From: Jimgerdemannia flammicorona
Taxonomy: Eukaryota
DNA: 52,140 bases
Reading direction: 5' to 3'
NCBI GenBank assembly: GCA_003990765.1
Contig: RBNJ01000021.1
Location: 1-52,140 of the forward strand
Positions within the stretch are counted from its first letter, which is position 1. Each line of letters starts with the position of its first letter. The position numbers were made by a program, and so were the translations under genes. Shown in pieces: positions 19,932 through 51,310 of the stretch. Below the pieces are notes generated by a model. That model saw only the letters and a list, made by a program, of their open reading frames with translations, was not told where the DNA came from and searched no databases.

Positions 19932-19933
19932 CT

Positions 19934-25098: not shown

Positions 25099-25129
25099 TC
25101 AGCCCCCACTAACAGATGATCTGTTCTCA

Positions 25130-25655
25130 GACAATTCTTTAGTTATCATTACAATGTACATAAGTATCTTTAGCATCAATACCTGAACTAGTATCTTTAT
25201 TTGGATCAGAGTCACTCTATTCAACAGGTTCTTCTTCTTCCTCTAGAAATAGGATCTTGACATAATTGATGATACTCTAGTAGGTAGTAGGATTTATGTT
25301 TTATATATCATTTAGGAAGAATTGGGCCTGTATCAGTGCTGAGATATTTCATTTGTAGATTGTATACAATCTGTCTGCAGTAGTGGTGTTTTTTCAGATG
25401 AGGTCAGTGGAGTTTCTGATATAAGTTAGGTCTGCTACTAGAAGGTTCTGTAACTGTTCTCCAATTGTATAGTAGGCCTGTAGCTGGTGGACTTGCAGTA
25501 AATGTCTAGCCAAGGTGAGGTTCTCCTAATGGGTTTGGATTTGCTGAAGGGAGTTTCTATTGGCTGGTCAGAATTATGGAAGATGAACTGGAAGTTATTA
25601 GATTGAACTTAGGACAAGAGTCTGAAGGTACTTATCAATTGTCTGGTTCATACAT
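25130..25655 (-). pseudogene. Additional ORF of unknown function between integrase and the 3' LTR of element C
   Basis: Reads MNQTIDKYLQTLVL...ENLTLARHLLQVHQLQAYYTIGEQLQNLLVADLTYIRNSTDLI*KNTTTADRLYTIYK...INYVKILFLEEEEEPVE. Most stops are explicable as C>T changes. Confidence 0.55.
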
Positions 25656-28600
25656 AGTAGGAGAGGTATATCTTGAGGTAGTTGATGTGTACTGGTATTC
25701 TGAGGGTTCATCCATCTATGCTTCTTAAATAGATGCTGGTTCTTCTGATGTTGTGTACAAGATAACATCCTTCCCACTTGGACTCCAGTTTGGTAGCAAA
25801 ATTTATTTCAATCATGCTTCTCCAAACTAGTACTTGATCTCCAATCTTGATCTTCTGATCCTTCTGCTTCTAGTTATAATACTTCTTTTATCTTTCTTAA
25901 GCTTTGATAATCTGAACTTGGGCCTAATTACATAACTATTCTGTCTTTTTGAGGAGGTCTCTGATATTCTCATGGTCAGCAGTTCTGATTTTCTTAGCAA
26001 ATATCATTTTTTCAAATGGCTTTTGTTTAGTGGAGGCAGCAGGGGTGTTCCAAATTTTCCATAGGTTCTCAGACAAGCAGAGATCCAGTTGGTAGGATTA
26101 ACTCAGGCAAGTCCTTTCTTAATGATCTGGTTCATTCTTTCTATCATACTATTAATCTGAGAGTGGTATAATATGGTCTATTTGAGGTGGATCTATGAAT
26201 TTGGGCATAACTTATAATTATATTAATGATGAATTCTGTGCCTTGGTCAGAGATGAGTTCTTCTGGAAGTTCATATCTGAGTGTGAGTCTATGAAGGAGG
26301 CCTACAATAGTTAAGACATCTGTGATTTCCATTGGGAAAGCCTTGGGCCACTTGGTCAGATATTCTATAAATATAAGAATATACTTGTTTCTTCTTACTA
26401 TAACTAGTAGGAGTCCAATTATATCTACTCCCCATCTCTGGAAGATGTTGTCTGGTGGTACAATTGGTTGTAGTGGTGCTTGGTAGTTCTTCCTTTCTTA
26501 GTACTTCTGGTGGATGTCACATTTCATAAGTATATCTCAGACTTATATTCTGAGATTGAGCCAATGTTGGTGTATTGTTCACAGCTTTTCTTCTATATTC
26601 ACCTATCCTTGGTGGGCTTTCTGATGTTCTTTTTAGATGAGGTCTTCTTGTATCTTAATAGTCAGAGACTTCCTTTAGGATATAGTTCCTTAGAACACCC
26701 TTCTTCTGATTCATTAGGGTTGGTGGAAAAGTACATTAACATTGTTGTGAGCTTTCTCTGCTATGTGAATGATAGTGATTTTATAATCCTAAATAATAAG
26801 AGCCCAGTAGGCTAGGATTTCAGTAGATTTCTTATAGTTAAATAGCCATTTGGGAGCTACATGGTCAGTTATTAGAGTGAACCTTTTTCTGATAAGGTAA
26901 TGCTTGAACAGAGTGACCACCCATATGACTGTAAGGCATTCCAATTTGGTGCTACCATAGTTCATCTACTGCTGATTGGTAGCTCAGATTATATAAGCTA
27001 TCACATAGTGCTGTTGATCAGATCCTTCTTGAGCTAGAACTGCTCCCAGGCCATCTTTAGAGGAATCTGTATACAAGATAAATGGCTTCTGTAAATTGGG
27101 GCAGACAAGGATTGGTGCTGTGGTCATGCAGTGCTTGAGTTCCTTGAAGGCTAGTTCTTGTGATTCTGTTCATTTATAAGGTACTCCTTTATTGAGAAGG
27201 ATTCGAATTGGGGCAGCAATTTGGACAAAGTCCTTGATAAATCTTCTATAGTAGGATACTATTATTAGGAAGGATAGTATTTTCTTTGGGGTCTTGGTAC
27301 TAGCCAATTGTTGATCTTCTCAGTTTTCTTTGAATCTGTATGGGTTTTTTCTTTTGAAACTAAAAATCTAAGAAATTTAAGTTTCTGTTCCTCAAAGTAG
27401 TATTTATTGACATTGAGTCTCAAGTGGTTCTTGTGGGTGAGCTTGAAGAATTCTTCTAGGTAGTACAGGTGTTCTTCGAAATTTGCAGAATAGATATTTG
27501 AATCATCCATATATACAATCAGGCAGTAGTGAATCAGAGGGGCATAGACTGAATTCATCATTCTCTAGAAGGTGAGAGGTACATTACAAAGTCCAAAGAG
27601 TATTCAGAGATATTCAAACAATTTTCTAGAGCAATAAAGGCTGTCTTCTGAATTTCTTTTGGGTCTATGGGGATCTCATGGAATTCTGCAAAAAGATCCA
27701 TACTGCTGAAGTATCTAGTATCTTATAACTAGTCCAAAAGGTCATTGATTCTGGGCAAAGAATAGGCATCCTTTCTTTAGTATAATAAGTATAGGACTGG
27801 CCCAAGGGCTTGTAGAGGGTCAGATGACTCCATTGTCCAAGAGTTCTTGAATGTGCTTCTTTTTGAATATCTTTAGGTGATGAGGTATTCTATAGAGTTT
27901 CTGCCAGATAGTTGTTGCATTTCCTGTATTTATACTGTGGTAGTTTGATGGGTTGTATGGCAGGTTGCCATAATCAGTAGTGAAGATATCTTGATATTTG
28001 TTGAGGAGTTTGACTAGTTGTTGCTGTTACTGAGATGTCAATTCTTCTCCAATGTTAGTAGAAGGCTTCACTGTCTCCTGAGTCACAGAGGGGCCTTTCC
28101 TTTCTTCTGGGACCTTTTGCTATTTCTCAATAGGTTCAGTTTATAAACTTCTCTATAAGTTTAGTTGAGAAAAGGCACCAGATATCCTATGATAGTTCCT
28201 TTTGGCAAGATGATGGTTTCCCAACTTTGGTTAGTTGCTCAGGAGTGTACTGAATTCTTCTTGTCAGAGAATGTATATCCTTTAATATCCAGATTCAGGA
28301 TATCTTCATTGAGTTCAAAGAAGTGATTTCTGGGGTCAAGTGGTACAAAGATTTCAAAGGTGGTTTGCTCTCCAGACTCTGGAATAAGATTCTTGTACAT
28401 TTTGACTGGTTGGTAGTACACTTGCTGAGGAACATTTCTCTTGAGGTAATTGATCTGAAGGAGATGTACTTCCTTCTTATCTGAGCTTCCAAATCCTTTG
28501 GCTTGCCTTGTTCCTTCAGTTAGTTCAGAGACTTCTTATAATTGGGGAGTCTTGATCTTCATAAAGACTGCTTGGGCAATCTTCTGTCCTCTTATAATTC

Positions 28601-31600
28601 AGTGCCATTCTGTACTACTATTGTACAGGATGACTTTGATTGTGCCTATATATTCTGGGTCAATAGTTTCTTCTTCTACTATTATTCCTTGTCTGGAAAG
28701 TCCAGAACTTGAGGTCAGTTGGATGTAAGTTTCTTGGGTTGACTGTATGGCTAGTCTAGTTCTGATCATCAGTGTTCTTTCAGGCTTAATGGATTCATCC
28801 TCTAGGATGTGAAGGTTATACCCTATATCATCTTGGTGAGCTTTGGTTAGGGGTTGAGCCTTGGGATGTAACAGAGTATACTGGGCAATATCTTTGCTGA
28901 GTTCAGACTGTACTTATGCTGAAGCTCCACTGGCAGAGAGCCTCCAGGCTCTAAGGTTGAGGTGTGGCCATCTGGCTCCAGTAGAGGGGTCTCAGAGATA
29001 ATTGATTCCTCTTTTTCCTATAGGGTCTAGGGCTTCTATGAAGTTGGTGGCATCTTCTATCCATTCTTGATAAGTTGCATGTCTGATAAGAGCTAAGATG
29101 TCTTCTTCTAAATCATAGATCTTGAGTGTCCTTCTTCTTGACTTCCTGGCCTGGCTTTTTCAGATCTGAGCTCTGTTATCTCCTCTTTTCAAGGTATGAA
29201 TTACAATATCATACCTGAGGTGAATCTTCTGATGTCTGCAGTCTCAGCAGTCTGGATGTCTTCCATGATTACAATATCCCATTGCTCAAAAATGCTATTT
29301 CCAGTTGTTGATTTCTTACTACTTTGGAAATTAGTATCTATCTTGGTCATAGATTGGCAGAAAAGTAGACAGGGGGGGGTATACTTCTGTTTAGGTGAAG
29401 AGAACTTGTCCTCTAAATTGGCTTTGCAACTTGATAATAACTTCTTGAAAGGTGGTTAACTGTGCAACTATGGTAGGAGGTTCTAATCTTCACAGTCTCT
29501 GTCTTTCTTATTGGTCCAACAGGTGACACTAATAGCAGTAGTCTTAGAGAGAGTGGAAGACCATTTGGTATAGACATCTTCCTAGCCAGAAAGCTCTTTC
29601 TTTGTATATTTCTTACTTTAGAATAATGGGGATTATACTGAGTCCTTCTTCAATATTCCAGGGGTCATTATTTTCAGGTAGTGTCCAGCAAGAGTCATCC
29701 TAGGGAATGAGTTCAGAGACCTCCTGTTCAGGGGTTTCTTCTTCCTCAGATGATTCTTGACCCCAGATTGCTTGTACTTCTGCAGCTTCAGCTACAGGTG
29801 TTTTTGGAATATGTCTGCATTTCTTCTTCTTTCTTCTGCACTCAGGGCAGGCTGTGCCAGGCGAATTCCTTGTCCCAATGATCTTGGAGGAGTGCTCAGA
29901 GCACTTGTGTCTTTTGAGGCAGATAGGGCATTCTTTGATTTCTCCTACAATAGCTCCAATAGTAATGGAGATAGTGTTCTTGGCCTTTACATTGTATTCT
30001 GGCTAGTCATCTATCAGATTGATTTGGGAATTGAGTCTGGGGTTATTTCTATCTTCAGATTCTTCTGCCTCTTCTGTAGTAGACTCTTCACTACTGACAT
30101 ATTCCTCTTAGATGGTGACCTTCTTCTTCTTCTTCAATTACTTATAGCTGGTCACTTTAACTCTGTACTTCTTACCTCAGTAGTCAAACTTGAGTATTTG
30201 TTAACCAATATCAACAACTGCATTCATTTCCTTCATCCATTGGTGCCAAGGATCATATTATAGGTGACAGCTTCAGTGACAATAGCTTTCAGGATAGAGA
30301 ACTGAATGTATCCAAGGGAGATGGTGATGTTTTGTACTTCTCCAAGGGGTTGAGTTCGGGCTCCATCTGTTACTATGATGCTGAGATTGGATGGTCCATC
30401 AATGGGCCATTAGAGGGTATCCAGGAATTATTTGGCAATAATACAGACAGCTACTCCTATATCAATGAGGATTTTCGCCTTTTGTTCTCCAATATCTCCA
30501 TATAGGTAGGTGCTGATATATCTCTCTGTAGCCTAGATAGGGGTGGGGGCTGGCTCTTGCTGTAGGACTAGAACTTAGCCAATGCTAGACCTAGTGGTCC
30601 TCAGCAATTTGTTTTGGACCCTAGCTAGTGTCAGTTGCAGGAACTGCAGGAGAGAGACTTCTATCTTGATTTCTTAAATCTCCTACCAGGCTTTATTGTA
30701 GATGTCTCTGGGCATAGTCTTGGTGTACTTCTTATTGGGCTTTGGGGCAGCTCATTTGTCTCAGAGGCAAAAGGTGAGAGAGACTGAGAAGGTGTTTCTA
30801 CTTACTTTTCTTCATCTTTCTCTTGGATTCTTCTGCTGATATTCCTGGATAGCCTTCCTATAGATCCCTTCCTTTTCTCTACTAGGTAGACTGTCTTTCA
30901 GGTGGTGACTTTGGCTAGATACAAGTCCAGGTCACTGTAGTCTTCACTGTTGCTTTTTTCTTCAAAGTCTTCAACAGGATGGGCTTCAGTCTTTTTATAT
31001 TGAGTTTTATTTCTTCAATTTGGTAGTTCAGAATCCCTTTGATCACTTCTATTATTATCATATTTAGTGGTATAGTGTCTGAATTGTCTATAGTAGAAGC
31101 ATTAGACTTGGGCTCTATCTTGGACAGAATATCTTCTTTCTTCTTACTAGTAGTTCTTATTATCTCTTGGTGAATAACCTTGGTTCCTCTGTAGTGAATA
31201 TCCTCTGTTATCTTGATAACTCTGATTTTTACATATGGTGAGGTTTTCAATCTGTTCAATCAATCTGTTCAGCTTGGAACTAAGGTCTTGAATTTTACTT
31301 CTGTCCTTTTTTCCTTCTTTGGCTGGTCTTCTTTCTTCAGATCTTTCCTATTCTTAGAGGAGTCCTTGCAGGGCTTTGACCAGGATGTCTTCTTTGTCAT
31401 CTTTTTTGTCATAATCACTCCAGGTAGGTCTTTGTCTGACATCAAAGAATTCTTGGGCTATATCTACTTATTCTTCAGACCTTTTGATGCCTAGGATACA
31501 GATATACTGAGCAATATTCAGGGGAATTCCATTTATGAAGATCATTGGACCTATGATGTTGCATTGTATCTAGCTATATACATTCTCTTCTGGATTATTA

Positions 31601-32330
31601 TAAAGAAGGCTCTGGGTGATTCTCCAATGTTCATCTTCATTTCTATAATAGATTCTTGAGCCTTATAGTAGGTTTCATTTTCTACATATTTTTCAATGAG
31701 CCAGTAGACTATGGCTATATATTCCAGCTCATAAGATGCTACTGCTTATATTTGTGCTATCAGTTCTGAGTATGGGTCATTTGCTATTTGGTGGAAAATT
31801 CCTCTGACTGGTTCTCTGAGCTGGGTCTTGTAGATGACAATTTTCCTTTCATCTGAGAGATTCCTCAGGGTTGCAATTCCTTTAATTCCATCAAGGAATT
31901 CTCTAGGATCTTCCTCTGGATATCCTGCAAAGGTTGGCAATGAGGTGGTTATTTTATCATCACTTTCTTCTGATTCTGGTTCTGGTCTGGATTCTGATTT
32001 AGATTCACTTTCTGAAGTGTTACTGGAGATAGGGGTGCTTGGGTATCTTGAGGATAGTGTTATGGATCTCAGATGAAGTAAAATAAGCCTAGGTATTCTT
32101 AAAGGAGCTACTTCTATTTCTGTAAGGACTGGTGATAAAGGTTCAATGATTGAGATTGGTGGAATCTCTCCGAGATATCTGGCTGCTGGATATTGGGTCT
32201 GTATAATGAGATCTTCTAGTTCTTGTACAAGTTCTTTAAAGTTTCCAACAGGACTATCTGTGTTGTCTGATTGATCTGGTTGAGGATTTTAGGCTGTACT
32301 GATTTCTGATTAGGATTTTTCTGATACTAA
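25655..32330 (-). pseudogene. C gag-pol: gag (~32330-30900), protease (~30500-30230), Cys/His-rich insert, dUTPase (~28890-28485), RT (~27900-27240), RNase H (~27110-26810), integrase (~26700-25655)
   Basis: PTFAGYPEEDPREFL gag; KILIDIGVA protease; dUTPase DIGYNL, IDPEYIGTI, QKIAQ, RQAKGFGS; RT IVYMDDSNIYS; RNase H YTDSSKDGLGAVL; integrase LISDQGTEF. Confidence 0.88.
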
Positions 32331-32483
32331 GAAGATGGCAAGTCTTGAGGTAATTACTTCTCTTCCTGTCCAAATATTGGTGATGACTAGTTCTCCTATA
32401 GTGGTAGAGATTAGTATTATATCAAATGTATCCAGTTTGACTGTGGGTTCTTATGAGCTGAAAAGTCATATTGATTTTGGAAT

Positions 32484-32502
32484 CTTCCTAGCTGAGCCCT
32501 CA
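32484..32502 (-). promoter_or_regulatory. Primer binding site of element C, tRNA-Pro-like
   Basis: The minus strand just after the 5' LTR reads tttgagggctcagctaggaa, resembling TGGGGGCTCGTCCGGGA. Confidence 0.45.
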
Positions 32503-32504
32503 AA

Positions 32505-33703
32505 TATAATATGCCTGACTCAATGTAGGCAAATTACAAGGTTGAGAGTTGATGTAGTTTGGCTTGAGCCTCCAGTTACTTTGTCAAAAGTAACAAAATG
32601 TTCTTTCCTAAGGTCCTTGGCCTTTAGTGATATAATAGTCAATTCTGGATATAATGGTAGTTCCTTTGTTCACATACCAGTTGATTTGTACTGATTTCAT
32701 TATTGGAATTGTTCTCTGGATGTAGTAGTGATTTATATATATATATAGCAGACTGGCAATTTAGTAGTTTTTCTTCTTAAGTGATAGCAATCTCTAAAAG
32801 TATGCAATTTCTACATAATGATCTTTTTTTTAGTATGATGATCTCTGTGTAGTGCAACAGGTTCCTTATGTGATTTGGCAGATAACTTGATTTGGTATGG
32901 ATTCTTCTGAACCAGACTTACTGGGAATAGAGGATGGTATGGATTCTCTTCGAATTGGCAGCTCACTAAGAATAGATAAATAAATCAGATAGCATAGATA
33001 ACTTGAATAACTTGGATATTGCAGATTCTTCTGAATCAGTAGACTTTTTGGATAATAACTCAGATTCTTCAGGCTTAGTCTGGCAAGTATTCCAAAATAC
33101 AGTAGCTTATTTCTTAAGTAGTGAGTTTCTCTTCAAAAGGTAGTGAAGTTCTTCACTCAAACTTAGTCAGCAAATCTTCAGGCTTATCTGGCAAGCAAAC
33201 CAAGGCTTTGTTTCAGAAAGTGAACCAGAGTTGGAAAAGAAAACCAATATATACAATCTTCTAGTAGTGGCTTTAGAGTGGACATTTCTCCTAAGTGTTG
33301 CAATCCAATTCCTTTAGGATCAAGTGGCTTTTAGCAGGCATATCTCTTGAAGTATAGTAGGCAGACTTGTTTTTGCTTTAAATTTTGAACTTTTTGAACT
33401 GAGGTTTATTCATTCTTGTCTCTGAAATATTTTATACAATTGTGGTTACTATATGGTTACTATATTACTAACTCTAGACTACTACCTATGATAAGTATTC
33501 CTAGATAGTACAGTGTATCCACTAGGTATGGTATATCCACTTGGTATGGTATACCCACTGAATATGGTGTACTTGCTCAGTATAGGTAAACATACTGTTT
33601 CTGGTATGTATCTTTAGCTAATTATATATTGATTGCTTAGTATACTAGATATGGTATATGGCTAATTTATGAATTCAGTAGTACAATTTTATTACTTGTC
33701 ACA
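32505..33703 (-). repeat. C 5' LTR (~1.2 kb)
   Basis: Direct repeat of 23765-25098. Contains short GGTATGGTATAYCCACT tandem units at ~33500-33580. Confidence 0.9.
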
Positions 33704-35883: not shown

Positions 35884-36404
35884 AGAAGTATAATAGATTT
35901 TTTATCTTAAATACTTAATCTTTGACTTCTCAGAGTTCTCAGATATTGAGATGAGTGAGTTTAAAGTATATCTATCTGTAGGCTTACTAGTTCTCTTGTC
36001 TCTTTTACTTTGAAATATTTTGATCTGAGATTTATTTACTCTAGATACTATGATATTTATAGCTATATAATAGCTAAGTTAGAACTTCTTTTCCTATAAG
36101 TTATTTTGTCCAGATATGAGATCTGTATATCTGTACAATTATGAGTTTTATATAGTTGTACTTTTTATATAATTATATAAATATACAACTGTGAGATCAA
36201 GTAACTACTAAACTATATAATACTATACTATATCAGAAATCAGATTTAGATATTACAATTAAATATCTATCTCTAATTATACTTTCTAATTTGGATCAAC
36301 TATTATAACTTTCTCCTAAATAAGTAATTTTATTTCTAAATTATCTTATTCAAACTTCTAAGCTTTCACTTATTATATGTTCCTATATTATATAATCTAT
36401 CTAA

Positions 36405-37911
36405 TGTCATGTAGTGGTTGCTGAGTCCTTCAAATATGCCAGATTCTCTTCAAGATATATCTCTTAGACTAACTCAAGTTTGTTATAAGCAAGTTCTTAT
36501 TAGAGTACCTTCCCAAGGTCTTATAGTCCTCAAACTCCTTATCTTTAACTGTCTTGTTATCTCTTAGATTGCTTGCAAGGAAGTGTGTATATTGTACTGA
36601 GAAGACTGACTTTATTTCAGAGGAAATAAGAGGGATATTTATATAAAATATAATTCAATGGTTGCTAAGAAATAAAGCTAAATATAAATTTCAATAACTA
36701 AAACTGCTAAGTTCCAGGGTCGGCGCTGATGGTTGTACAGATTCAAGATGCTAGTATAATTTAGTGTCACATCAGAATACCAGTGCTGGAACAATTTCAC
36801 ATCACCTCAAAATGCCAGTGCTGGCATTATCCAGTGTTACATCAGAATACTGGTGCTGGCATTATTCAGTATAATAAAAAACTTAGAGCAGAAAGTTCAG
36901 GATTATGGGGGCTTCATTATCATCATCATCACTAAAGGAGATGAGATCCGTGAATTTGTCATTTTCACATGCTTTGATGTTGCATGAGATGATATCATTG
37001 CCAATGACATCATCACATTTGGCAGTGGGGAAATTGGGAGCTCTCCAATCTATGAGGTTCTCTTCCACAAAATAAGGAACAAATGTGGGGTCTTGGGGAG
37101 ATCTAACCTGAATGCTTAGGCCTTGGAATACTGAGATCAATCCTTGCAGGAATTGGTCTGGGTTGTCTTGGAGGATGGGGTGCCAGAAGTCTTCTACTTC
37201 ATCACTATTGAGAGTGATAGTGGACTGGGCTTCTGTAGCCACCCTGGCTTCTAGTACATTGATATGGTGAGATGACAGATCTCTGAAATCTGAGACTCTA
37301 ACATACTCCAGGTTGGAGATCGACCATGATGCATGCCTGAAGATCTGATGGATCTTTTTAGCTATTCTTGTCTCACATATATCCATGGGGGTGGTATCTT
37401 GTAGCTCTTGAGGGCTGGCCTGTGGGAACTCCCAGCAGAGAAGGTTTCCTATTTCATACTTCAACTATATTTGGAGGCATTTGGTAGCAATGGTGATCCT
37501 TGTTTCCATTTCATAGTGGTAGAGGATATAATGATAGAGATCTGCAGTACCCAGGTCAACACTAGGAGTCTTCTTGAGCAGGTCCTCATAGCTCTCCTGA
37601 TGTCTTGGATCATCCTTTCTTCAACTGAGGTACCTTGGTGGTTCCTTGACCTTGAGGTTCGGCAAGTGTTAGACATTTCTTTTGTGGAAAGTCTTTGAGC
37701 CATTTTGGAATTGGTGGGTCTTATTGGTTGCTGCTACTGCAGTTCCTTGATCCTTCTTTTATATTCTTTAGGATGCTTATACTGTGGTCACAATGACTCA
37801 CAGTTGGTCATTATTGCTCATCTCATATGTCATATGATCTCCTTGTGCTAGTGGCTTACAAGGAAAGACTGTCTCCTGTGCTGATGTCATCATTCTGAGG
37901 TCACCATTACA
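36405..37911 (-). repeat. A2 3' LTR (1507 bp)
   Basis: Direct repeat of 43599-45112 with TG...CA termini. Confidence 0.95.
36883..37703 (-). pseudogene. LTR(U3)-encoded ORF of unknown function, ~270 aa reconstructed (193 aa still open)
   Basis: ORFs 37461-37703 and 36883-37464 join if one frameshift and one stop are corrected. Homologous frames occur in the 5' LTR and in A1. Confidence 0.7.
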
Positions 37912-38284
37912 TCTTCCTCCTGAATAAGGATCTTCTTGAGTATCCTTATTCATTGGTCCAGTCCTGAAAAATTTGCTGATCCCACAACCTCTGGCAAGGG
38001 GTCAAAAAGTGATATTTATGGGCTGTTGTCTTCTCTTTATATTTTGATATGATAGTGAAGGGTTGCTCCCTTCATATAGAGCAAGGGCCTGATTCTGATC
38101 TTTACCAATCAGTTGATGGTTTGAACTCCTCTGACTTCAAAAGTCTCATGGATGAGTAGTTGTCAGTGCCACATCTCTTAGAGAATGGTCTAGACAGATA
38201 GCCTGCTGGTTATAGGATATGCTGTTACAATTCACGGACTAGAACCTTGTAGGTGGTCATCACATTTTGCTTCTCTTATATAGG

Positions 38285-41200
38285 TTTGTAGTACTTCTTG
38301 AGTCTGTTTCTATGTACCATGGTAGGCAGTATGGTCTCTGAGATTTTTCTAAGCCAGAAGGTGGTTCCCTTGATATCTTGTACATAGAAGGGTCCTTCCC
38401 ATTTGGGCTTCTGTTTTCGTGACTATGAGGCTTCTACTATATTTTGATACAATAGAACCTTTTCTCTGATTTGGATGAGTTCTAGGGCCTTGTGATTCTT
38501 TTCCACATTATTCCTTATCAGTGCTTGTAACTTAGTGATGTAATCTTCAGCCTTCTTTCTGATTTGGTGTAGTCTCTGGATTTCTGCATTAATCTGTCTC
38601 CAAGTTAGGTCTAGATTTGTAGCTGAGGTTCCATCAGAATCTTTTTCTCTGAAGAGCAGCTCTCTTGGGGTAAAGTGTGTGCTCTGTGACCATATGTCTC
38701 ATAGGACAGAGAGAGTGGTTGGGAGATAGTTATCCTAATTCCCATATATCTCTGAGATCTTCACTAGGATGTTCTTGAGGGTCTTATTGGTTCTTTCTGT
38801 CTGTCCATTTCCTTGAGGGTAGTACATAATGGTCTTGATGGGCTGGATCTTATATTTCTGATATATTATCTCATAGAATCTATTGACAAATTCCATTCCA
38901 CAGTCTGTTGTGATTTGCTTTGGTGTCTTGTAGTGGCAGAGTGCAGGAAGTCAGCTATAGAGAGGGCATTGTCTTCTTGTAATGCTCCCACCTCTATCCA
39001 TTTGGTAAAGAGGTCTACAATAACTATAATATAGCAGTTTCCTAATAGTGTTACTGGTAGTGACCCAATGATATCCATTGCGATATGGTGGAAGGGGATA
39101 GGCTCAATTCTTAATAACCCAGGTGTCTGGTCTTGCTGATCTTATTTCTGTTTTTGGCACTTGTTACACCCTTTGACAAATTGGCACAGGTCTTCTTCTA
39201 TCTTGAGCCACTATATAGTTCTTCTTGCCTTGTCATATGTATTGGTTCCTCCTAAGTGTCCTTGCTTGCATACTTCCTTCATTACTTGATACTTCTTGTA
39301 TTCAGGTATTACTAGCTTTCCTCCTTTTCTGAGTGTAGTGTTGTCTAGTTCAAACTGTTTTCAAGTCTGGTTGATGATGGTAATTGTCCAGGGCTCAAGG
39401 TGGTTGGGCATCTTCCACTGTCCAAGATAGTTAATTAATCCATAGCATAGCTCCTTATTCATGTTGAATAGTCTTGATGGGGGTGTTTTGGGATATCCTT
39501 GAGAGGGCATTGGTGTTGGTATTGGGCTTTTTCTGAGCAGTGCTTGATAGGACAGTCATACTCTTGTAGTCTATAGATCCATCTGGCATATATTCCTTTG
39601 GGTTCAGAGTGTGGAATAGCCAGGCAAGAGTGGAGTGGTCTGTTTGAATGATGAAGTGTTTCCCAGCTAGGTAGTAGTGGAACTTGTCTACTGCCCAAAC
39701 TACTGCTAAGCATTCAAGCTTGCAGGACTCATAGTTCTGTTCTGCTCCACAGGTACCTTGGCTTGCATAGGAGATGATATATTTATGTCCATCTTTCTTC
39801 TGAGCTAGGACTGCTCCAAGTCCTATAGCACTTGCATCTGTCTGCAGGATGAATTCTAGATTCCAGTCTGGTCTTCTGAGGATAGATGCTTGGGTCAACC
39901 TGGTCTTGAGTTCATTGAAGGTTTCTTAGTGCTCCTTGGTCCATTTGAATTTGGTTTCCTTCTTCAGTAGCTCATAGATAGGTGCTGCAATGTTGGAATA
40001 TCCTTTGATGAACCTTCTGTAGTAGCTGGCCAGTCCAAAGAAGGCATAGACTTCTGTGGTTGTCCTGGGTCTTGAGTAGGCTGCAACAGCCTCAATCTTC
40101 ATAGGGTCTGTATGGATTCCAGTCTGGTTGATGAGATGTCCTAGATAGGCAATTTCCTGAGCCACAAATTTACATTTCTTGGGCTTGATGTAGAGGCCAT
40201 ACTCCTTGAGCTTCTTGAGGGCTAGCTATATGTGATTGATATGTTCCTGTGCAGTATTGCTGAAGATGATCACATCATCAACATAGACAAAGAGCCATTT
40301 TCCAATCTCATTGCTGAAGACTCTGTTCATCATTCATTGGAAACTTGCTGGGGCATTGTACATTCCAAATGGCATTTGCAGGTAGATATAGGTGGCATCA
40401 GGTATGATGAAGGCTGATTTCTCACTGGCATCTTGAGTGAGACCAATCTGATGGAAGCCTGAGAACAGATCCAAGATGGTGTAGTATTTGGCTTCACTTC
40501 CAAGGGTGGTAAGGATTTCTTGAATATTTGGCAAAGGTTGCCTATCCTTCTTAGTGATGGCATTGAGCTTCCTGTAGTCAATACAGAGTCTTGGTGCAAA
40601 CTCTCCAGGCTTGCTTCCTTTCTTCAGGGTAAGAACAATGGGTGAGGCCCAGGGGCTGATAGCTTGCTTGATGATTCCAGCTTCTTCCATTTCCTTGAGT
40701 TCTGCTTGCAGTCACTCTCTGTAGACAGGTAGTATGGGTCTGGCTTTCTGGTAGATGGGCTTGGTATCCAGTGTCAACTTTATGATAGTACTTGGGTTCT
40801 TGATTGTAAATATCCCTAAAGTCTGTAGCAAGTACTTCTTTGTTCTGGTGCAGGATCTTGAGAAGTTGTTCCTCTAGGGGAAAGTTTTCTCCAATGGTAC
40901 ATATATGTGTGCTTGTTCTGGTCCTTGTCTTTCTTGTGCTCAAGTTCAGTAATCTTGGTGGTGGCATAGGCTTCTCTTCCAGTAGATCCAAAGCCTTGTT
41001 CTCCTCTCTTAGTCTTGATGAGTTTGATGGCTTCAATGATCTTGGGTTTCTTGATTTCGTGGATTAGCATCTGGCCAATCCTGTCATGCTTCTTGACTTT
41101 GAATGGGGTGGTGGGGTTGTGATTCCTGACTATGATAAAGATCTCGCCAGTGTAATCAGGGACAATTACTCCTCCTTCAACTGAGATTTCACTTTTGGCC

Positions 41201-43475
41201 AGACTGCTCCTAGTCTTGATAATTCTGGGATGGTTTTCTGGCAGCTTGACTCCAATTCCAGTGTCAAGTAGGGTGGTGGTCTGTAGTTCAAGGGTAGCAT
41301 CTTGAATGCTGGCAAGGTCCATTCCTATGGCTTCTTCAGTCTTATATTCTGGGATCTTGGCTTCAGGGTGAAACTTCTTGACCTTGAGGGTGATGTCTGA
41401 TTCTTATTCCTCCTCATCATTGCTGTCAGCTTGAAGCTCTGGGGGCTGGTCATCTTCTTCAGCTTTCCTTTTTGCTTGAGCAGCTTCTTGCTTATGTTTC
41501 TGTTGGCAGATTTTCCTAACTTCACTGATATAGAATCGGCAGTCATTCAGGTGTTCAGAGCAGTATATCCTAGTACCATGAGGGCATCTTCCTTGAGGGG
41601 CATACCCATTGATGATCTTGTTGTACCACTTCTCATCTGTGAGCTTGGGTGTCTTGTTCTTGTTCTTGTTCACTGAGTGCATGAAGACCTCTGTGTCCTC
41701 TTCATCTCCTTCCTCCATATCTGATAGAACTCCTTTATAGACATTGATAGAGACTTGTATCTTTCTTCCTCTATAGTTGATCTGCATCTTCTGGGCATTG
41801 AGGTCAATGATGGCCTTGGCCTTGTAAAGCCATTGATTGTCAATGAGGATATCATAGTTAGTGGCACTTGTAACAATCACATTTACTGGGATGGTAGCTC
41901 CTCCTATCTTGATGGGAACTTCTCAGATTTTGCCAATAGGTGTAGCTCATATACTATCTGCTATAACATAGATCATCTTGATAGACTCTTCAATGTCCCA
42001 ACCTAGGTGGTCAATTGCCTTCTTGCTTATGAGGCATCCTCCAGCATCAGTATCAATGATGGCATCAAGATACAGTCTTTGATCTGGCAGGGAGTATAGG
42101 CTGATGTCTTGCGCTGGTCTTCAGATTCTTTACCTGAGTTCTCAGATTCTTCCTGTGCATTGTGAGCTTCTACAATCTTGTACTCTTGATTCTTGACAGT
42201 AGTTGTAAGTCCTACTCTCAACTGCTCTGAAGGTGGAGACTTCAGCTAGCTATCTAAGATAGCATTGACCTTCTGTTCCTTCAGGTCCTTGTAGATATCA
42301 TACTGGTGGATCTTGGTCTTGCACAGCTTCTGTTCCTTATTGTTTTCACTTTCTCCTGAGACTGGAGTAGTGCCTTCAATAATTTGGCAGGAAGCTTCAT
42401 CTAACTCCATGTCTTGATCAATCTTCTTGGGTTGGGTCTTGCTTTGAATAGTGACAGCTGGGGTCTTCTTTGGTCTTTCAACTGGCTTGCTGTTGCTCTT
42501 CTTGTCATAGGGCTTGGATCAGGTTCTGGTACCTTCAGTAGTAATATAGAATTCAAGCTCCTCATAGTATTCTTCATCATCAGTATCACCAATCTCCTTG
42601 ATGACTACTGTATTGGTTTGTTCTCTAGTTCTGCTAGCATTGCTTAGTTGGGCTCTGTGTCTTGTTTTGGTCATACAATTCTTTACATAGTGGTCTTCTT
42701 CTCTACATCTGAAGCATGTGATATTGCATTCTTCTATAGCAGCTGCAAATCTCTGCATTGGTCTCCTGTTGGTGCTTTGGACTTCTCTAACAACATCACC
42801 AAGGTGTGTAGTCATCTTGGCAAACTACTTGGCGAGTTCCTCCACTGGGTCAGCTTTGGCTGTCTTGGGGGTAGGTGGGATTGGTTGTCTGTTCACAACT
42901 GTGGTGGGTATGATAGTAGTTGGCTTTGATGGCTCCATCTTGATGCTAGTTATTTTCTCCATTGAGTGTTCGGCAGGGTGTCTGGCAGTCCAACATCTCT
43001 GTACAAAGACCACTTTCTGATCAAGGGTCAGTGCAGCTGGAGTAGACCAGATTGCTAGGGCAATTTCAGGGTGAACTCCTTTGAGAAAAGTTGAATATGC
43101 TATTTATTCCTTGAGGCATTCATCATAGCCAGCCAAGATAATCTGGTGGCAGATTCAGATATAGAATGAGTTGAGATCTTCACTAAGTCCCTGGCAGATA
43201 GTATTGAGTTGATCCTTGAGAGCTTGCTTGATCTCTTCAGTATAGTATATTGTTCTGAGGAAGGCCTTTATGTTGGCAAGTTTGGCTATACCAGCATCAG
43301 CAATGGTGGCTGCATTGAACTTGTCTCTGGCAGGTCCTCTGAGGCTGACTGGTAGAAGGGCCAATTGAGCATCTATACCAAGGGCTCATATGGCAGTAAA
43401 TTGTTCAAAGTCTTCAATGAAGATCAGGATTGACTCTTCAGTAGTATATCTATAGAATGTGAGGGGATGCATTTC
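38285..43475 (-). pseudogene. A2 gag-pol: gag with CCHC knuckle (~42720-42675), protease (~42080-41780), dUTPase (~41385-40975), RT (~40720-40010), RNase H (~39860-39505), integrase (~39450-38285)
   Basis: CFRCREEDHYVKNC; MDL...RSSL...GVIVPDYTGEI...DRIGQ...RGEQGFGSTG; SPWASPIVL...RLCIDYRKLN...LDLFSGFHQI...MPFG; LQTDASAIGLGAVL; MDIIGSLP. Stops and frameshifts are present. Confidence 0.95.
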
Positions 43476-43598
43476 CATCTTGTCTTGAATTCTTACAGAG
43501 GTGACTCTTGTAGTCAGGGTAGTTGTTGTGGGGGTTGTTCGTTTTTCAGCTTGAAAGTGAGGGATTCATCTTGAATTACTAGCCAATGGGCACCAAGT

Positions 43599-45112
43599 TG
43601 TCACATGTGGTCACTGAGTCCTTCAAATATGCCAGATTCTCTTCAAGGTATATCTCTTAGACTAACTCAAGTTTGTTATAAGCAAGTTCTTATTGGAGTG
43701 CCTTCCTAAGGTCTTATAGTCCTCAAACTTCTTATCTTTAACTGTTTTGTTATCTCTTAGATTGCTTGTAAAGAAGTATATATATTGCACTGAGAAGACT
43801 GACTTTATTTCAGAGGAAATAAGAGAGATATTTATATAAAATATAATTCAATAGTTGCTAAGATATAAAGCTAAATATAAATTCCAATAACTAAAACTAC
43901 TAAGTTCCAGGGTTGGCACTGATGGTTGTACAGGTTCAGGATGCTGGTATAATTCAGTATCATATCAGAATATCAGTGCTAGAACAATTTCGCATCACCT
44001 TAGAATATCAGTGCTGGCATTATCCAGTATTATATCAGAATACTGGTATTAGCATTATTCAGTATAATAAAGAACTTAGAGCAGAAATTTCAGGATTATG
44101 GGGGCTTCATCATCATCATCATCACTGAAGGAGATGAGATCTGTGAATTTGTCATTTTCATATACTTCGATGTTGTGTAGGATGACATCATTGCCAATGA
44201 CATCATCACATTCAGTGGTGGAGAAATTGGGAGCTCTCTAATCTATGAGATTCTCTTCTACAAAATAAGGAACAAATGTGGAGTCTTGGGGAGGTCTAAC
44301 CTGGATGCTTGGGCCTTGGAATACTGAGATCAATCCTTGCAGGAATTGGTCTGGGTTGTCCTGGAGAATGGGGTGCCAGAAGTCTTCTACTTCATCACTA
44401 TTGAGAGTGATAGTAGACTGGGCTTCTGTAGCCACCCTGGCTTCTAGTGCATTGATATGGTGGGATGATAGGTCTCTGAAATCTGAGACTCTAACATACT
44501 CCAGGTTGGGGATTAACCATAGTACATGCCTGAAGATCTGATGGATCTTTTTAGTTGTTCTTATCTCACATATATCCATGGAGGTGGTATCTTGTAGCTC
44601 TTGAGGGCTGGCCTGTGGGAACTCCCAGCAGAGGAGGTTTTCTATTTTGTACTCCTGTCATATTTAGAGGTATTCAGTAGCAATGGTGATCCTTGTTTCC
44701 ATTTCATGGCAGTAGAGGATATAATGATAGAGATCTGCAGTATCCAGGTCAACACTGGGAGTCCTTCTTGAGTATGTTCTCATAGCTCTCCTGATGTCTT
44801 GGAATATCCTTTCTTTAACTGAGGTGTCTTGGTGGTTCTTTGATCTTGAGGTTTGGTGAGTGGCAGACATTTCATTTATAGTAAGTCTTTGAGCTATTTT
44901 GGGATTGGTGGGTCTTATTGGTTGCTACTACTGCAGTTCCTTGATCCTTCTTTTATATTCTTCAGAATACTTGTACTGTGGTCACAATGACTTACAGTTG
45001 GTTATCATTGCTCATCTTATATACCATATGATCTCCTTGTATTCTGATCTGGTGGCTTGCAAGGAAAGACTGTCTCCTGTGCTGATGTCATCATCCTGAG
45101 GTCACTGTTATA
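43599..45112 (-). repeat. A2 5' LTR (1514 bp)
   Basis: Direct repeat of 36405-37911, flanked by the PBS and the CTAA TSD. Confidence 0.95.
44076..44870 (-). pseudogene. Second copy of the LTR-encoded ORF (A2 5' LTR)
   Basis: ORFs 44664-44870 and 44238-44579 are nearly identical in translation to 36883-37703. Confidence 0.7.
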
Positions 45113-45353
45113 CTAATTTTATTCTCTCAATAATATCTCTTTATCTATCAGAAATAGACTAGGGCTTACTTGTTATCTTTAAATAGTTTATAAATCTGCT
45201 TAGTAATAGTGATCTGAATATAGAATATTTGGTACTCTATAATCTACTTTTCTTTTATTATATTCTTATTCTTATTTAGTAATTGTTCTAACTTAAAGTA
45301 TTTATAAAACTCAGTATAGTTTTAGTAGATTCTAAAATATAAAATATATAATA

Positions 45354-48300
45354 TATAATGGTTCAAATTTCTTTAAGAGGAAGTGACTAAGACTGGTAAT
45401 TCTGGTGAGTCCAAAGTAGCTTAAAGAGATACTTATAGATTCAAGTATTCTCAAAAGAATTCTGGAAGAAAATATTCTAAGCTTTACTCAAGTAGAGAAT
45501 AAGGATATTTATACAGAATCTGAAAGAAAGATCTGGAAGGATCTCAGAAAAGAAGAGAAAAGCCAAGAAATAGATTCTCAGCAAAGATGACTAATAGAAT
45601 TCTACAATATTCCAAAAGGTCCTATGATTAGCTAAGATAAGATACTTGAAACCAAGAAAAGATGAGAATATTTTAGTAATGTCTTAGTACCAAGAGAAAA
45701 TTTCTAGGAATTTAAAAGGTGCTGAAACATAGCAGAATATATAAGCAAAGATAAGAAAAGATTAGCAAAAGATGCAAAAAAGTACTAAGACTAAAATATG
45801 TCTATAAAATTATTACATTCCTTTCTCCTTAAGAACCAACATTCTTATTGAGTTTTTAGATAATATAAGACTAAATATACTTAAACAAAATTTCTTAAAC
45901 TTATATTAATATATTGGTAAAGACTAGCTATTCTTGTATAGAGCAGAGAGCCTATTATCAAACTAACTAACTAAGAGGGGTTCAAACCCAGCTAGTAGCT
46001 TCATTTTAGTAAATTTCTTATTAACTAAATATTTTACTAGTTCTAGTGTCCCAAAGTAACTTCTGATATATAAGGTACTAGTTATTACTATAAGTTATTG
46101 ACAATCCAAGAAAGTCACTACAGAGATTGGGAAATATATTTTCTCTTGAAGTCTTGAACCAGATCTTGAGATTGACCAGTGGTTTCTAGATAGTATTATA
46201 TTCAGAATAGCCCATCCACTTGACCAGGTATTCAGAATGATGGTAGCAGATTCAGTTGTTTAGAATTTTCTCAACTTTATATTTGATATTATCTGTAATA
46301 ATTATAGGAGCATATAGCTTAAAAATTTGACCAGAGTAGGGTAGTAACTAGTTCTTAGTCTTGAGGTATGACATATGAAAGACTGGATTTATTCTCATAG
46401 TTTCAGATAGCTTGAGATGGTAGGAGAATGCAGAGACTTGTTTGATAATCTCAAAGAGTCCAATATACTTGAGTTGAAATTTGTTTGATGGATAGTTGAC
46501 TTGAGATTATATTTTGAGGTTTTCAGTAGATAGTAGAACTTGATCTCTAATAGTATAGATGACATTATGGTATTTCTTATCAGCATACTTGACTTGATGC
46601 TATTGGGTCTTCTGGAGATTCACAGTAGCAATCTTGAGTAGCTCATTCATTTTATCTATAAGTTCTTAGCAGTAGAGACTTATATTTGACTGTTTATCTT
46701 AAAAGGAACTAAACTTGCAGAGGTCTTGGAATCTTAACTATAGAGTAGCCAAAAAGGAGAAAGACCAGTAGATGATTAGACAGTATTATTTTATACAAAT
46801 TATGCATATATAAATCAAGTAATGATCTCAATTATCTTATTTATAAGAAACATATTTTCTGTAGAGTTCTGTTCATGCACTTGGTTTATCTATCAGTTTG
46901 TAAGTAGAAGGTAGTAGATATGGCCAATTGGGTTCCCAGGGTCTTGAAGAGAGTTTGCCAAAAGTAACTGATGAACTTGGAGTCATGATTACTAATAATT
47001 ACTCATAGTAGATCATAGTGATAAAAGATAGACTTGAAGAAGATTCTTGCAATCTTGGATATATTAGCATTGATAGTAATTGGTTCAGCAATCTTAGTTT
47101 TGGTCAGGCAGTCAATAAATACATATGATAATAGTATCAGAATCAGATTGAGTTCATAGTAGTTATATTACAAAGTCTATTGTAACTTGCTCAAATTTCT
47201 TAGTCAGAATTGGTAGTGGTTGTAGCAAACCAGCTGGTGCTTGGTTGGTAGACTTATTGTACTGACAGAGATTATAGCAAGTAAATAGTTCTTGATTTTC
47301 TCGATCATACTTGATCAATAGTAGTGATACTGAATATTTTTAACTATTTTCTCAATTCTAAGATAACTGGAAAAAGGGAAGTCATGGTGTTTTTACAGAA
47401 TCCTATAATATAGATTCATTTGTCAAATAGGTAGACTTGGTCTTGATGGTAGATCAGATTGTTTTCAATAGTATATATATCCTTGAGCTCATTCAAGAAA
47501 ACTTGAGTAGTGATAGTGTCTTCTTAGTAAGCTTGCTGGATTTGGTCTAGAAATTCAGATACCAAGATGACTTGCATAATTGTAGTAAGGTCTGGAAATC
47601 TTAATAAGGCATCTGATACTATAAGTATCTTTCCAGACTTATAGATAATTATCAGATTGGAAGTTTGAAGCTTTAGGCTCTACTTGGCTTATAATTATAA
47701 TAATATTGATTGGGTAATAATATATTTGAGAGATTGATGATCAGTGATGATATCAAACTCAATATCTTCAAGATAGTATTATCAATAGTCTAGTACATAT
47801 ATTATTACCAGTAGTTTTTTCTTATGGGTAACTAGCTTTTGTTCAGCTAGAGTCAACTTATAGGACTCAAAGACAATAGGATGATGTCCTTTACCATCAT
47901 CTTGTAACAAGACTACTCTAATGGCAAAATTTGATATATCAGTAATAATGGTGAATTTTAGACTTGGATTTATATTATATAGAACTAGAGCATATGTCAG
48001 ACAGTTCTTGAGTTCTTGAAAGACTTATTGATAGAAGAGATCTCAGATATAGGGTACATAGTGATCAGAGTTAGAGATCTTTCTCATGAGATTAGTCAGT
48101 GGTTCAGCAATACCAGAGAAGTTCTGACAAAGTGATAGTAGTAGCTAGTTAGACCTAGAAAGGACTAGAGTTCTATGAGGTTTAATAGAATAGGCCATTC
48201 TTAAATTGCATCTATCTTGTATAGATCTACTTGAATTCCTTATGTAGAGATAATGTGGTCAAGATATTTGATTTATTCTTTGAAAAATTTATACTTCTTG

Positions 48301-50090
48301 GGCTTTGCATAAAGCTTGTATTTTCATAATATCTCTGGAACTATTCAGATATTCTTGAGGCAATCTTCTTTAGTTATACTAAAGATCAGGATGTCATCAA
48401 GATATATCAATAAGAAGATTAATAGTTAGTCCTTGAATATTTTATTCATAAGAGTCTGGAATGTGGTAGATACTTTAATAAGACCAAATACTAGAACTAA
48501 AAATTCATAAAGTCTAAAGAGAGTTATAAATATAGTCTTGGGGATAGCTTCTGACTTGATTCAGATTTAGTAATAGCTCAATATGAGGTCCAACTTGGTG
48601 AAGTCCTTGGTATTCTTAAGAATATCAAAAATCTGATCAATTAAGGGTAGTAGATATTAGTTCTTAACTGCAAGCTTATTGAGTATATAATAGTCTATAT
48701 ATATTTACAGAGTATTATTCTTCTTCTTGACAAATAGAACTGGTGAGCTATAGAGAGATTTGCTTGGTTGAATGACTTCTTATATAAGAAGTTCTTCTAG
48801 TTCTTTCTCAACTGTTTCAATTTTGAGTAGTGATATATAGTATATATATTTCTTAGATAGTATAGCTTCTGGGGTCAGTTAATTTCATGATTAATTTCTG
48901 GTATATATAATAGACCAGATAGCTTGTCTGGAAAGATATTCTTGAATTCTTCAAGTAGTAACTTGACACTTTTATTGATTGACAGCTTCTTGTCTTATTT
49001 CTTAAGACAGACTATTACAACAAAGATATATACTGTCTTCTTGAGTACTTTCTTATACTATATTACTGATAGTATTATAACTGAAGTCTTATTTGCAGAC
49101 ATGTCTGCCTTGATAGTAATGTTGACTTTTTCTTAAAATAGAGTAACTTCATTTTTATACTAATCAATATTCAGATTATATTTTATAAGCTAGGGATTTC
49201 CTAAGATCAAATTATGATCTCCTAGTGTAACTGTAAAGTCTACTTATTCTCAATATTTCTGAATCTTGATGGGTAGTTTGGTAGTAATTGACTCAATAGG
49301 ATGAGTATACCATCTGTAGTAACTATACCATCATTCTTGGATATAGACTTATTAAGTATCTTGAGGTTTTTAATGAGATTCTGGTTGATGAAGTTTTCTA
49401 TAGCTCTACTGTCTATAAGTACTTGAACTTCTTTTTCTTTAACTAGACCTTTGAAGATGAGCATAGCTTGAGTTCAATTTTTAGTAAGACTTGCTACTTG
49501 ATCAGTATTATCAAAATCTTTCTGATCTTGCATAATTTCAGATAGTTCTTGGACTTCTGTAATATTGAGTAAACTGGCTTTTTTTAGGATTATTTGTGTA
49601 ACTTGATCTCCTTCCTTGACTGTATAGTCTTGATATTTCTGATTGATAAGTAAGACTTGAACTTATCCTTGATAGTCTGAGTCAATAATAACAGTACCTA
49701 CATTTAAATGATATTTAATATTGAGTTCTGATTATATTACAATTCTGGCATAATGTTCTTCAGAACATTAGACTGCAATTCCAGTAGGCACTAGAGTTTG
49801 GCCTTTAGCTGGAATAGTGACTTATTTAACAGAGTATAGGTCAAGACCAATGGTATTTTCTAATTAACATTGAGGGATCTGGGCCTTTGGATGAAGCTTC
49901 TTGATCTTGAGTTCAGGTTGACTGATAGTAGAGTTGACAGGTGTATCTTTGGATAATACAATGAGTGATCTTGAGAATGCACTGGTCTTCATAGAACATT
50001 TGGTTGACATGTGTCCTATTTGGTAATAGAAAAAATAAGCTTCAGATTTCTTCAAATGGTCTTTTTCTTCAGGGGTAAGCTTGTTGTTCT
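45354..50090 (-). mobile_element. Chromovirus family B, copy B2: 5'-truncated within gag
   Basis: 3' LTR 45354-45817 and PPT 45818-45830. Chromodomain ~46310-46145, IN, RH, RT, protease (VLIDSRAIENFI, ORF 49240-49464), dUTPase ~49870-49505, knuckle YFFYYQIGHMSTKC. Confidence 0.88.
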
Positions 50091-50919
50091 TTTTATTTAT
50101 AAGGAAGGTGATGATAATGACCATCATAAGGCCAAACTTGACCTTATAAGTGATAAATTGTTGATAGAGCATATTGAATACAGATTAAGAATAGCAGTAA
50201 TATGAAGGATAAGAGTTTTGTAATAGTACTATATAAAGTCAATGAATTGATCTGAGTAAGCTGAGATAGATATAAACTATATGAATGGGTTAGAGTAGAT
50301 ATGGTCACTGCTGTAGAGGCTTGACTAGTGGTTTTCATCTTTAAAGTAGACTGAAATATAATAAAGAGAGAGATAGTATCAATTAGATCAATAGTCAGAA
50401 AAGAAGACAAAAAAAATTTATAAGAGGGGATAGTATTACTAAGACTAATACCAGATATATTAAGTCATATGATGTCATTATGATGTTATTATTTATTTTG
50501 ACATCAAGATATTTAGCATAGTTTAATCTCTTAAACTGCCAACTGTATACATCGTTATATCTATTGGATATGCTTTCAAATATATATGATTACTTTAGCT
50601 ATACTATTATTATCTTACACTATTGATGCATGGACTAATTACTAATCCAAAATAACCATGCTTCTAGTTTTGGATTTCTATAGATCTACTGACTCTAAAG
50701 AATAGATATCCATTTGAATTGCCAAGTACAATCATGTAAACCCCCCAAAAAGAGACTAAAACTAGTGCTGGATAGTATAAAGAAAGACCTTGAGATTGTT
50801 GCTGCCAGCAATAGATATGACAGACTACACAGAAACAAGGTTCAACAAATTGTCAATAAATGGAAGATATATTTGTTTTAGTTTGACTGATTGGTTAGTT
50901 AGCTAGCTCAATTAGAAAA

Positions 50920-51310
50920 TAGTATTAGTTTGTATCTCTCAGTCATCTTCAGTGACAAACTGGGACTAGTTGTTCACCAGTTATGAACTTCTAGTTTGCC
51001 AGTCACTCTAGAAGGATAGAATCTTACTTGTGGGCAAGTCTTGATAAAGATAATGGTCAGGTGTGGTCAAGCTGAAACTACTTATCTACTAGTTATAAAC
51101 TGCTAGTTCATACTCTCTCCTCTTGATCATTTGGCTGACCAGTGATTAACTACTAGTTTATGTCTCTTAGTCATCTTCATGCAGCAAGCTGGGACTGCTT
51201 GTCTACTAGTTAAGAACTGTTAGTTCACCAGTCTCTCTAGAGGGATAGTGATGAAAATAATAGCTATATGGTCAAGTTAGAACTACTCATCTATTACAAG
51301 TTTGCTGGTC
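50920..51310. repeat. Diverged tandem duplication (~230-bp period) with shorter internal subrepeats
   Basis: tagtttgtatctctcagtcatcttca...ctgggact...agttatgaact...ctctaga.ggatag at ~50925 recurs at ~51154. Confidence 0.65.

Follow-up and report, generated by a model that had tools for sequence, protein, structure and literature searches.

The 52,140-nucleotide stretch of the Jimgerdemannia flammicorona genome analysed here (contig RBNJ01000021.1, positions 1 to 52,140; hereafter the window) carries a minus-strand Ty3/gypsy retrotransposon, A2, and a second copy of the same family A, the plus-strand element A1; the open reading frame (ORF) under study sits in the long terminal repeats (LTRs) of these elements. 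It is highly likely that, in this Ty3/gypsy lineage with its dUTPase, the 1.5-kb LTR holds a genuine gene for a protein, some 264 codons long in A2 and 271-342 codons long in its relatives, which was kept by purifying selection during the diversification of the family, and that the window copies are dead, having lost function once inserted, through C>T/G>A transitions and a single deletion of 1 nt. Taken as a whole, the gene and the mechanism that we propose for it give, in our judgement, quite probably the best explanation of the data. An initial annotation of the window had already proposed an accessory gene under selection, a view borne out by intact relatives, by a ratio of nonsynonymous to synonymous substitution rates (dN/dS, or omega) of 0.16-0.27 in frame against about 1 in shifted frames, by insertions and deletions (indels) that preserve the frame, and by a constraint like that of pol.

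The gene starts at a conserved ATG located at 37676 in the 3′ LTR of A2 and at 44870 in the 5′ LTR, 236 nt inside the 1.5-kb LTR, and stops at 36883 and 44076, respectively. It spans LTR nucleotides 236-1029, ends about 480 nt before the end of the LTR and lies wholly within it. The copy of the 3′ LTR (36883-37676, minus strand; ATG 37676-37674, TAA 36885-36883) is disrupted by a 1-nt deletion near 37570 and by a TAG at 37467-37465, its longest open stretch being 193 codons (36883-37464). The copy of the 5′ LTR (44076-44870, minus strand) keeps one single frame of 264 codons plus stop, which is interrupted by TAA 44666-44664, TGA 44660-44658 and TAG 44240-44238 and is open over 139 codons at most (44238-44657). 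The truncated LTRs of A1 preserve on the plus strand the C-terminal 128 codons (3351-3737; four internal stops, ending LNILL-stop) and the N-terminal 35 codons (MSATHQT..., 10141-10245; one stop). When five proteins of the family are searched against the window with tblastn, only 44870-44079, 37676-36886 (in two frames), 3351-3734 and 10141-10242 rise above noise, and the ORF resembles neither gag nor any of the other repeat families present there. The initial annotation had read a sense-strand ORF of about 270 residues in both A2 LTRs and in A1: the coding frame is indeed present in all the LTR pieces, but neither A2 copy contains an open ORF of that length. Its further suggestion, a frame of about 340 residues running from the LTR start and restored by two reversions, does not hold, for this 343-codon frame has seven internal stops instead of two, runs through a conserved TATA-like box and extends beyond the conserved Met-Pro start, which corresponds to the ATG at 37676; an ORF reaching back to the LTR start is thereby ruled out.

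Evidence for a gene also comes from relatives outside the window. Used as query, the 193-residue piece recovers seven proteins at 55-80% identity; a search with the family profile yields 11 proteins from 5.8 billion clusters and, with exhaustive HMMER, five clusters from 1.84 billion representatives. Metagenome contigs from at least four subfamilies encode intact relatives of 271-342 residues (28-80% identity). The full-length ones are P0002 (271 residues), P0013 together with the ORF of contig L001 (323 residues), P0009 (342 residues) and P0022 (325 residues); all of them start with Met-Pro, matching the ATG at 37676, and they share 28-56% identity with P0002. L001, the only locus recovered by our scan of metagenome contigs, is a 1345-nt metagenome contig with an open 343-codon frame, the probability of which is about 1e-8 from base composition, and 3′ of its stop it displays TATAAATA...AATAAA signals like those of the family A LTR. 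Since these downstream signals are shared, we regard L001 as an LTR fragment of a diverged subfamily. For the members whose source was read, that source is a metagenome contig from JGI/IMG or ENA, no longer than 4848 nt, and in no case an NCBI or UniRef entry. The search of viral contigs returned no relative of the LTR ORF, and no longer form of 476-2000 residues was found, lengths of about 600 residues and more being covered by that one search.

The selection acting on this frame was examined by the Nei-Gojobori method on protein-guided codon alignments. Between the A2 5′ LTR and L001, omega is 0.18 over 258 codons, with 86/61/129 differences at codon positions 1/2/3; it is 0.16 between the A2 3′ LTR and L001, and 0.29-0.35 between A1 and A2. 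The strong transition bias deflates absolute values of omega, and shifted-frame controls were therefore run: on a nucleotide-only MAFFT alignment of A2 with L001, omega is 0.26-0.27 in frame versus 0.97-0.98 and 1.2-1.4 in the shifted frames. As a benchmark, omega between A1 and A2 is 0.25 over 168 codons of dUTPase and 0.36 over 136 codons of RNase H; the constraint on the LTR ORF is as strong as that on the pol domains of the element itself. Indels tell the same story. Those separating A1 from A2 measure 12, 3 and 15 nt in the ORF, all three being multiples of three, as opposed to 5, 3, 2, 1, 1, 10, 1 and 1 nt outside it (one of eight); those separating L001 from A2 measure 3, 12, 6, 18, 9 and 19 nt in the ORF (five of six multiples of three) and 6, 28, 22, 22, 5, 1, 7 and 13 nt outside (one of eight). 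In related contigs from four runs, the in-ORF indels are -3, +9 and +1 among the 12 of 42 indels listed. Two observations of the initial annotation, namely that A1/A2 indels keep the frame and that both families end in Leu-Leu-stop, are upheld.

The ruin of the window copies follows a different pattern. Between the two LTRs of A2, 130 of 138 differences are transitions, spread flat over the codon positions (16/12/17); these are post-insertion differences, that is, neutral decay. Related population contigs hold an extra C after 37569 (+1), which restores the frame of the window. As regards the kind of mutation, 82 of the 130 transitions are C>T in CpA. The observed/expected ratio of CpG falls to 0.01-0.05 in the repeats at 3344-10237, 19000-24000, 24391-33565, 36410-45105 and 45200-52140, compared with 0.95 in a GC-rich gene island at 14000-18500. 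This loss of CpG, together with the transitions, points to cytosine mutation targeted at repeats, either similar to repeat-induced point mutation or driven by methylation.

The LTR context of the gene in A2 is as follows. The 3′ LTR (36405-37911, minus strand) is 1507 nt long, begins with TGTAATGG (TGTAAT...) and ends with ATGACA; the 5′ LTR (43599-45112, minus strand) is 90.5% identical to it. The element is flanked by a 4-bp target-site duplication, TTAG, at 36401-36404 and 45113-45116. A primer-binding site, TGGTGCCCATTGG, lies at about 43583-43595 on the minus strand, 3 nt past the 5′ LTR, and a polypurine tract, AGGAGGAAGA (37912-37921, minus strand), adjoins the 3′ LTR. The internal region (38279-43565, minus strand) encodes gag with a CCHC knuckle, protease, dUTPase, reverse transcriptase, RNase H and integrase, the order of Pfam domains along the minus strand being zf-CCHC, RVP_2, (dUTPase), RVT_1, RT_RNaseH and rve, and all these genes are decayed by stops and frameshifts. 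With a TG...CA LTR pair and its target-site duplication, the domain order, the primer-binding site and the polypurine tract, A2 is a Ty3/gypsy (Metaviridae) element. Its pol ends near 38279, about 365 nt short of the polypurine tract; the LTR ORF is therefore no extension of pol, and a fusion of the two is ruled out. Between the integrase end and the polypurine tract (37922-38278, minus strand) no recognised ORF or domain is present, the 50-codon frame found there having no Pfam match. Of A1 there remain a 5′ LTR remnant at 3344-4219, equivalent to LTR positions 679-1521, and a 3′ LTR remnant comprising roughly the first 130-330 nt of the LTR and ending at 10237. The ORF is thus carried by both A2 LTRs and both A1 remnants, outside the internal region, and is not an internal-region ORF of the kind of ORF0, env-like ORF3 or antisense ORFs.

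Two TATA-like boxes bracket the gene. TATA box 1, GAATATAAAAG, is identical at 37756-37766 and 44950-44960 (both minus strand) and at nucleotides 1-11 of L001, and precedes the ATG by 87 nt in A2 and 65 nt in L001. TATA box 2, TATAAATATCCCTC, is followed by AATAAA (36643-36630 and 36616-36611, minus strand; 27 nt apart, about LTR nucleotides 1269-1301). It reads TATAAATA(C/T)C(C/T)CTC in A1, A2 and L001, about 240 nt past the ORF stop, and the spacing between box and hexamer is 26-27 nt in A1, in A2 and in L001 (1218/1244). The site at 3969 in A1, with counterparts at 36643 and 43836 in A2, agrees with the initial annotation, which had placed the ORF upstream of a TATA-like box. A tandem array of a 35-nt unit, in about 3.4 copies (36749-36866, minus strand), missed by Tandem Repeats Finder and shown by repeat search, lies after the ORF stop and before TATA box 2; its copy number varies in related metagenome contigs, whose alignment joints go back 35 nt or skip 39 and 84 nt. 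This array could be enhancer-like. The TATA...AATAAA pair downstream of the stop is the sole basis for placing the ORF in U3 (the unique 3′ region of the LTR).

What the protein looks like can be described in outline. It comprises roughly 265 residues in A2, with a short basic N-terminus rich in Ser and Arg, then a helical core of about 150 residues with the motifs W-x-[ED]-Y-E-I, HQ[IV]FRH.PW, LQDNPDQ and F[QE]GP, then a beta-hairpin, FVPYFVEENLIDWR, and finally a C-terminal tail of 56-126 residues. The tail has a net charge of -15 to -27 in all five proteins considered and contains many F, L, I, V and W residues (18-40 hydrophobic residues per tail); the motif F-x-[DN]-L-I-x-F and an acidic run followed by LNF are kept across subfamilies. 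Length-variable and acidic, this tail is predicted to be disordered. The 19-residue Kyte-Doolittle mean peaks at 0.59-1.07 in six of six proteins, which corresponds to no transmembrane-like segment, and it follows that the protein is not env- or Sag-like. AlphaFold2, run on alignments of 14 and 21 rows, gave weak models (predicted local distance difference test score, pLDDT, of 52 and 56; predicted template modelling score of 0.39 and 0.48), which nevertheless agree on helices at about 18-185, on a hairpin at 200-212 (FVSYFVEENVIDWR) and on a tail from residue 218 with pLDDT below 50. No Pfam family is matched at E<=1 by five proteins of the family or at E<=0.01 by the window ORF, and no PDB sequence profile at E<=1. 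With the weak models as queries, Foldseek searches of PDB and of viral structures produced nothing at E<=0.001, and a wide VIA-align search reached a best Z of 4.9 with a single long helix only; the ESM Atlas offered no lead (best feature score 0.83, best template modelling score 0.33). With models of this quality, the lack of matches reveals little about the fold. The acidic, hydrophobic-studded tail suggests a regulator or an adaptor, and would be compatible with an activator.

How such a gene might be expressed and what it might do for the element can be proposed as follows. We lean towards TATA box 2 and its AATAAA as the presumed promoter of genomic RNA and poly(A) signal at the border between U3 and R (the repeated region of the LTR), which would put the ORF in U3; genomic RNA would then start from TATA box 2, at or past the AATAAA. 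TATA box 1 is a candidate promoter of the gene's own, a role to which we give somewhat less than an even chance, and by which each LTR, whether 5′, 3′ or solo, could produce an mRNA of about 1.1 kb ending at the LTR poly(A) signal. The product may serve the family in trans; its most likely role would be that of a nuclear regulator or adaptor recruiting host factors by way of its acidic tail, with an LTR transactivator as the leading guess; this step we hold only tentatively. It is equally tentative, and tempting, to picture the LTR as a self-contained cassette of TATA box, 264-codon ORF and poly(A) signal, each LTR being a possible source of one trans-acting protein that would activate the promoters of the family or counter silencing by means of its acidic, motif-bearing tail, roles also suggested in the initial annotation.

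Several points weigh against this interpretation and should be borne in mind before its rivals are considered. All four window copies are broken. The homologues lie only on short contigs (at most 4848 nt), and the LTR context is seen in the window and, by the downstream signals, in L001. The DNA set used for dN/dS consists of the four window copies and L001 only, dS between subfamilies is saturated (1.8-2.1), and the post-insertion control, A2 5′ versus 3′ LTR, returned an omega of 0.41, not 1. Conservation of TATA box 1 amounts to two lineages, and L001 starts exactly at the box, which leaves no flank for comparison; TATA box 2 may alternatively be an AU-rich polyadenylation element. Finally, the case for a function draws on composition alone, and the structure models are weak.

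If the gene is real, its expression can be read in other ways. Transcription in U3 might proceed without an LTR-internal promoter, the protein being made from the 3′ part of the element transcript by a spliced or subgenomic RNA, as retroviral genes located near or in the 3′ LTR are; this is the route put forward in the initial annotation. We judge this unlikely, though it deserves serious attention: that TATA box 1 is found in two lineages only speaks for it, and by eye no conserved pyrimidine tract with AG appears between the LTR start and the ATG, a weak argument to the contrary. Another arrangement would make TATA box 1 the main promoter and TATA box 2 an AU-rich efficiency element of the poly(A) signal, so that the gene would lie in R or the leader, as first cistron of the full-length RNA and present at both its ends. 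In its favour, TATA box 1 is conserved and has the right position ahead of the ATG, and TATATAAATA followed by AATAAA resembles the bipartite poly(A) signal of fungal type. Such an arrangement, however, would imply an R of about 1.1 kb, which is unusually long, and translation of gag by reinitiation after a 264-codon cistron; moreover, the variable 35-nt array lies shortly before TATA box 2, in the manner of U3 enhancers, and the spacing of 26-27 nt puts the start at or past the hexamer, which lets the 5′ LTR skip its own poly(A) signal. We therefore find this arrangement doubtful, and prefer a gene placed in U3.

More radical readings deny the element any benefit or deny the gene itself. LTR retrotransposons do capture host sequence, and a protein devoid of any recognisable retroelement domain might be a fragment of a host gene carried along in the LTR without service to the element. 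Against this, no longer homologue (476-2000 residues) and no cellular homologue was found; only five clusters turned up among 1.84 billion representatives, and all members come from short metagenome contigs. Purifying selection equal to that on pol across subfamilies that have diverged to 28-33% identity, and the conservation of start, stop and C-terminal motif, also speak against it, and we regard a captured fragment as very unlikely. That the sequence is not coding at all, being a product of chance or a DNA-level, cis-regulatory feature of a long U3, could be argued from the regulatory nature of U3 regions and from the stops present in both window copies. The improbability of the 343-codon frame of L001, the codon periodicity, the frame specificity of omega, the indels that keep the frame and the intact ORFs of at least four subfamilies make this the least credible of the explanations, to the point of being barely tenable.

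Complete or partial genes in U3 are familiar from retroviruses. The sag gene of mouse mammary tumour virus (MMTV) is a complete ORF in U3, duplicated at both ends of the provirus and in solo LTRs. The LTR ORF resembles it in being complete within the LTR, where it would precede the presumed promoter, and differs in its product: Sag is a type II membrane glycoprotein of a vertebrate betaretrovirus, whereas the LTR ORF has no hydrophobic segment and no Pfam match and belongs to an env-less Ty3/gypsy element. The nef gene of human and simian immunodeficiency viruses and bel2/bet of foamy viruses are 3′ accessory ORFs that overlap U3. They share with the LTR ORF their position at the 3′ end and a coding sequence that reaches into U3, but they start in the internal region and merely overlap U3, while the LTR ORF has its start codon 236 nt into the LTR and is followed by about 480 nt of LTR sequence. 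No similarity to Sag, to Nef or to Bel2/Bet was found in sequence (Pfam) or in fold, the fold searches having been made by Foldseek with weak models. As a working analogy we favour Tas (Bel1) of foamy viruses, a regulator with an acidic C-terminus expressed from a second promoter, which the LTR ORF would resemble in layout. Candidate Tas-like features, drawn from composition and sequence only, are the net charge of the tail (-15 to -27) and the TATA box 1 located 65-87 nt upstream of the ATG. There is no homology between the two, and the second promoter of the LTR ORF would lie inside the LTR, not in env.

Retrotransposons themselves provide closer, if partial, parallels. In the LTR of BARE, two TATA boxes give rise to distinct RNA pools (PMC3735527); both RNAs serve gag-pol and replication and no protein is encoded between the boxes, in contrast to the LTR ORF, which is encoded between its two boxes. 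Extra ORFs are also described, in the parts of the sources that we consulted, for Retrosat2, RIRE3 and RIRE8, where ORF0 lies between the 5′ LTR and gag-pol (PMC3485330), for Boty/BcGypsy1, where brtn is an additional ORF of a Ty3/gypsy element (bioRxiv 10.1101/2021.04.13.439636), and for fungal elements with an 'add. ORF' (PMC2864245). Like the LTR ORF, these are lineage-restricted extra ORFs of Ty3/gypsy elements, of no known function and under some constraint; none is placed inside an LTR in those passages, and it is by description, not by sequence, that they are set apart from the LTR ORF. Our search of the literature found no ORF inside a retrotransposon LTR, supplements such as additional file 1 of PMC2864245, which lists the structures of fungal elements, being outside that search.

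Other features of the window and of the family may be recorded here. A dUTPase domain stands between protease and reverse transcriptase in both family A elements (40819-41403, minus strand, and 6424-7113, plus strand; Pfam E 4e-26 and 5e-25). In the portions of PMC2864245 that we consulted, a dUTPase is reported at a like position in some fungal Gypsy elements (Postia PosPlaTy3-5) and is mentioned for elements of Phanerochaete and Tuber. The segment 36300-39300 was also compared with four runs (X1, X2, X6 and X7, two being soil metagenomes and two coming from one organism), in which 2846, 559, 296 and 233 records, respectively, place short contigs on the LTR and integrase at 80-99% identity; in X1, transitions account for 335 of 359 among the kinds of change listed. 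Soil samples thus contain this element family in abundance and in diverse forms. Elsewhere in the window, the sole clear host gene is a 432-codon open frame at 16635-17933 (plus strand), which encodes the seven-transmembrane domain of a class C G-protein-coupled receptor (Pfam 7tm_3, E 1e-32) with a short N-terminus; a 197-codon open frame at 1342-1935 (minus strand) has no Pfam match. A pair of direct repeats at 24391-24961 and 32996-33565, 8.6 kb apart and 79-84% identical, are probably the LTRs of another element, and the segments 19616-23454 and 45393-50101 form a long inverted pair of internal sequences with 80-84% identity. Scans of the window for tRNAs and for Rfam families gave no matches.

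LTRs are treated as purely regulatory and are masked by annotation pipelines; here an LTR carries a conserved gene that belongs to no known protein family and whose relatives, among the members with a source read, come only from unannotated metagenome contigs. If the protein is made, a simple Ty3/gypsy element would possess an accessory gene in the style of retroviruses. As the ORF lies inside the LTR, solo LTRs would carry the gene as well, and the coding load of these sequences, usually seen as dead remnants, would need a recount. If the cassette reading is true, solo LTRs would be coding genes in their own right, and the family would have at its disposal a distributed helper gene, the dosage of which would scale with LTR copy number. 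The protein, if made, would also be a candidate for how a high-copy element promotes its own expression in a genomic compartment that is heavily depleted in CpG and mutated by transitions.

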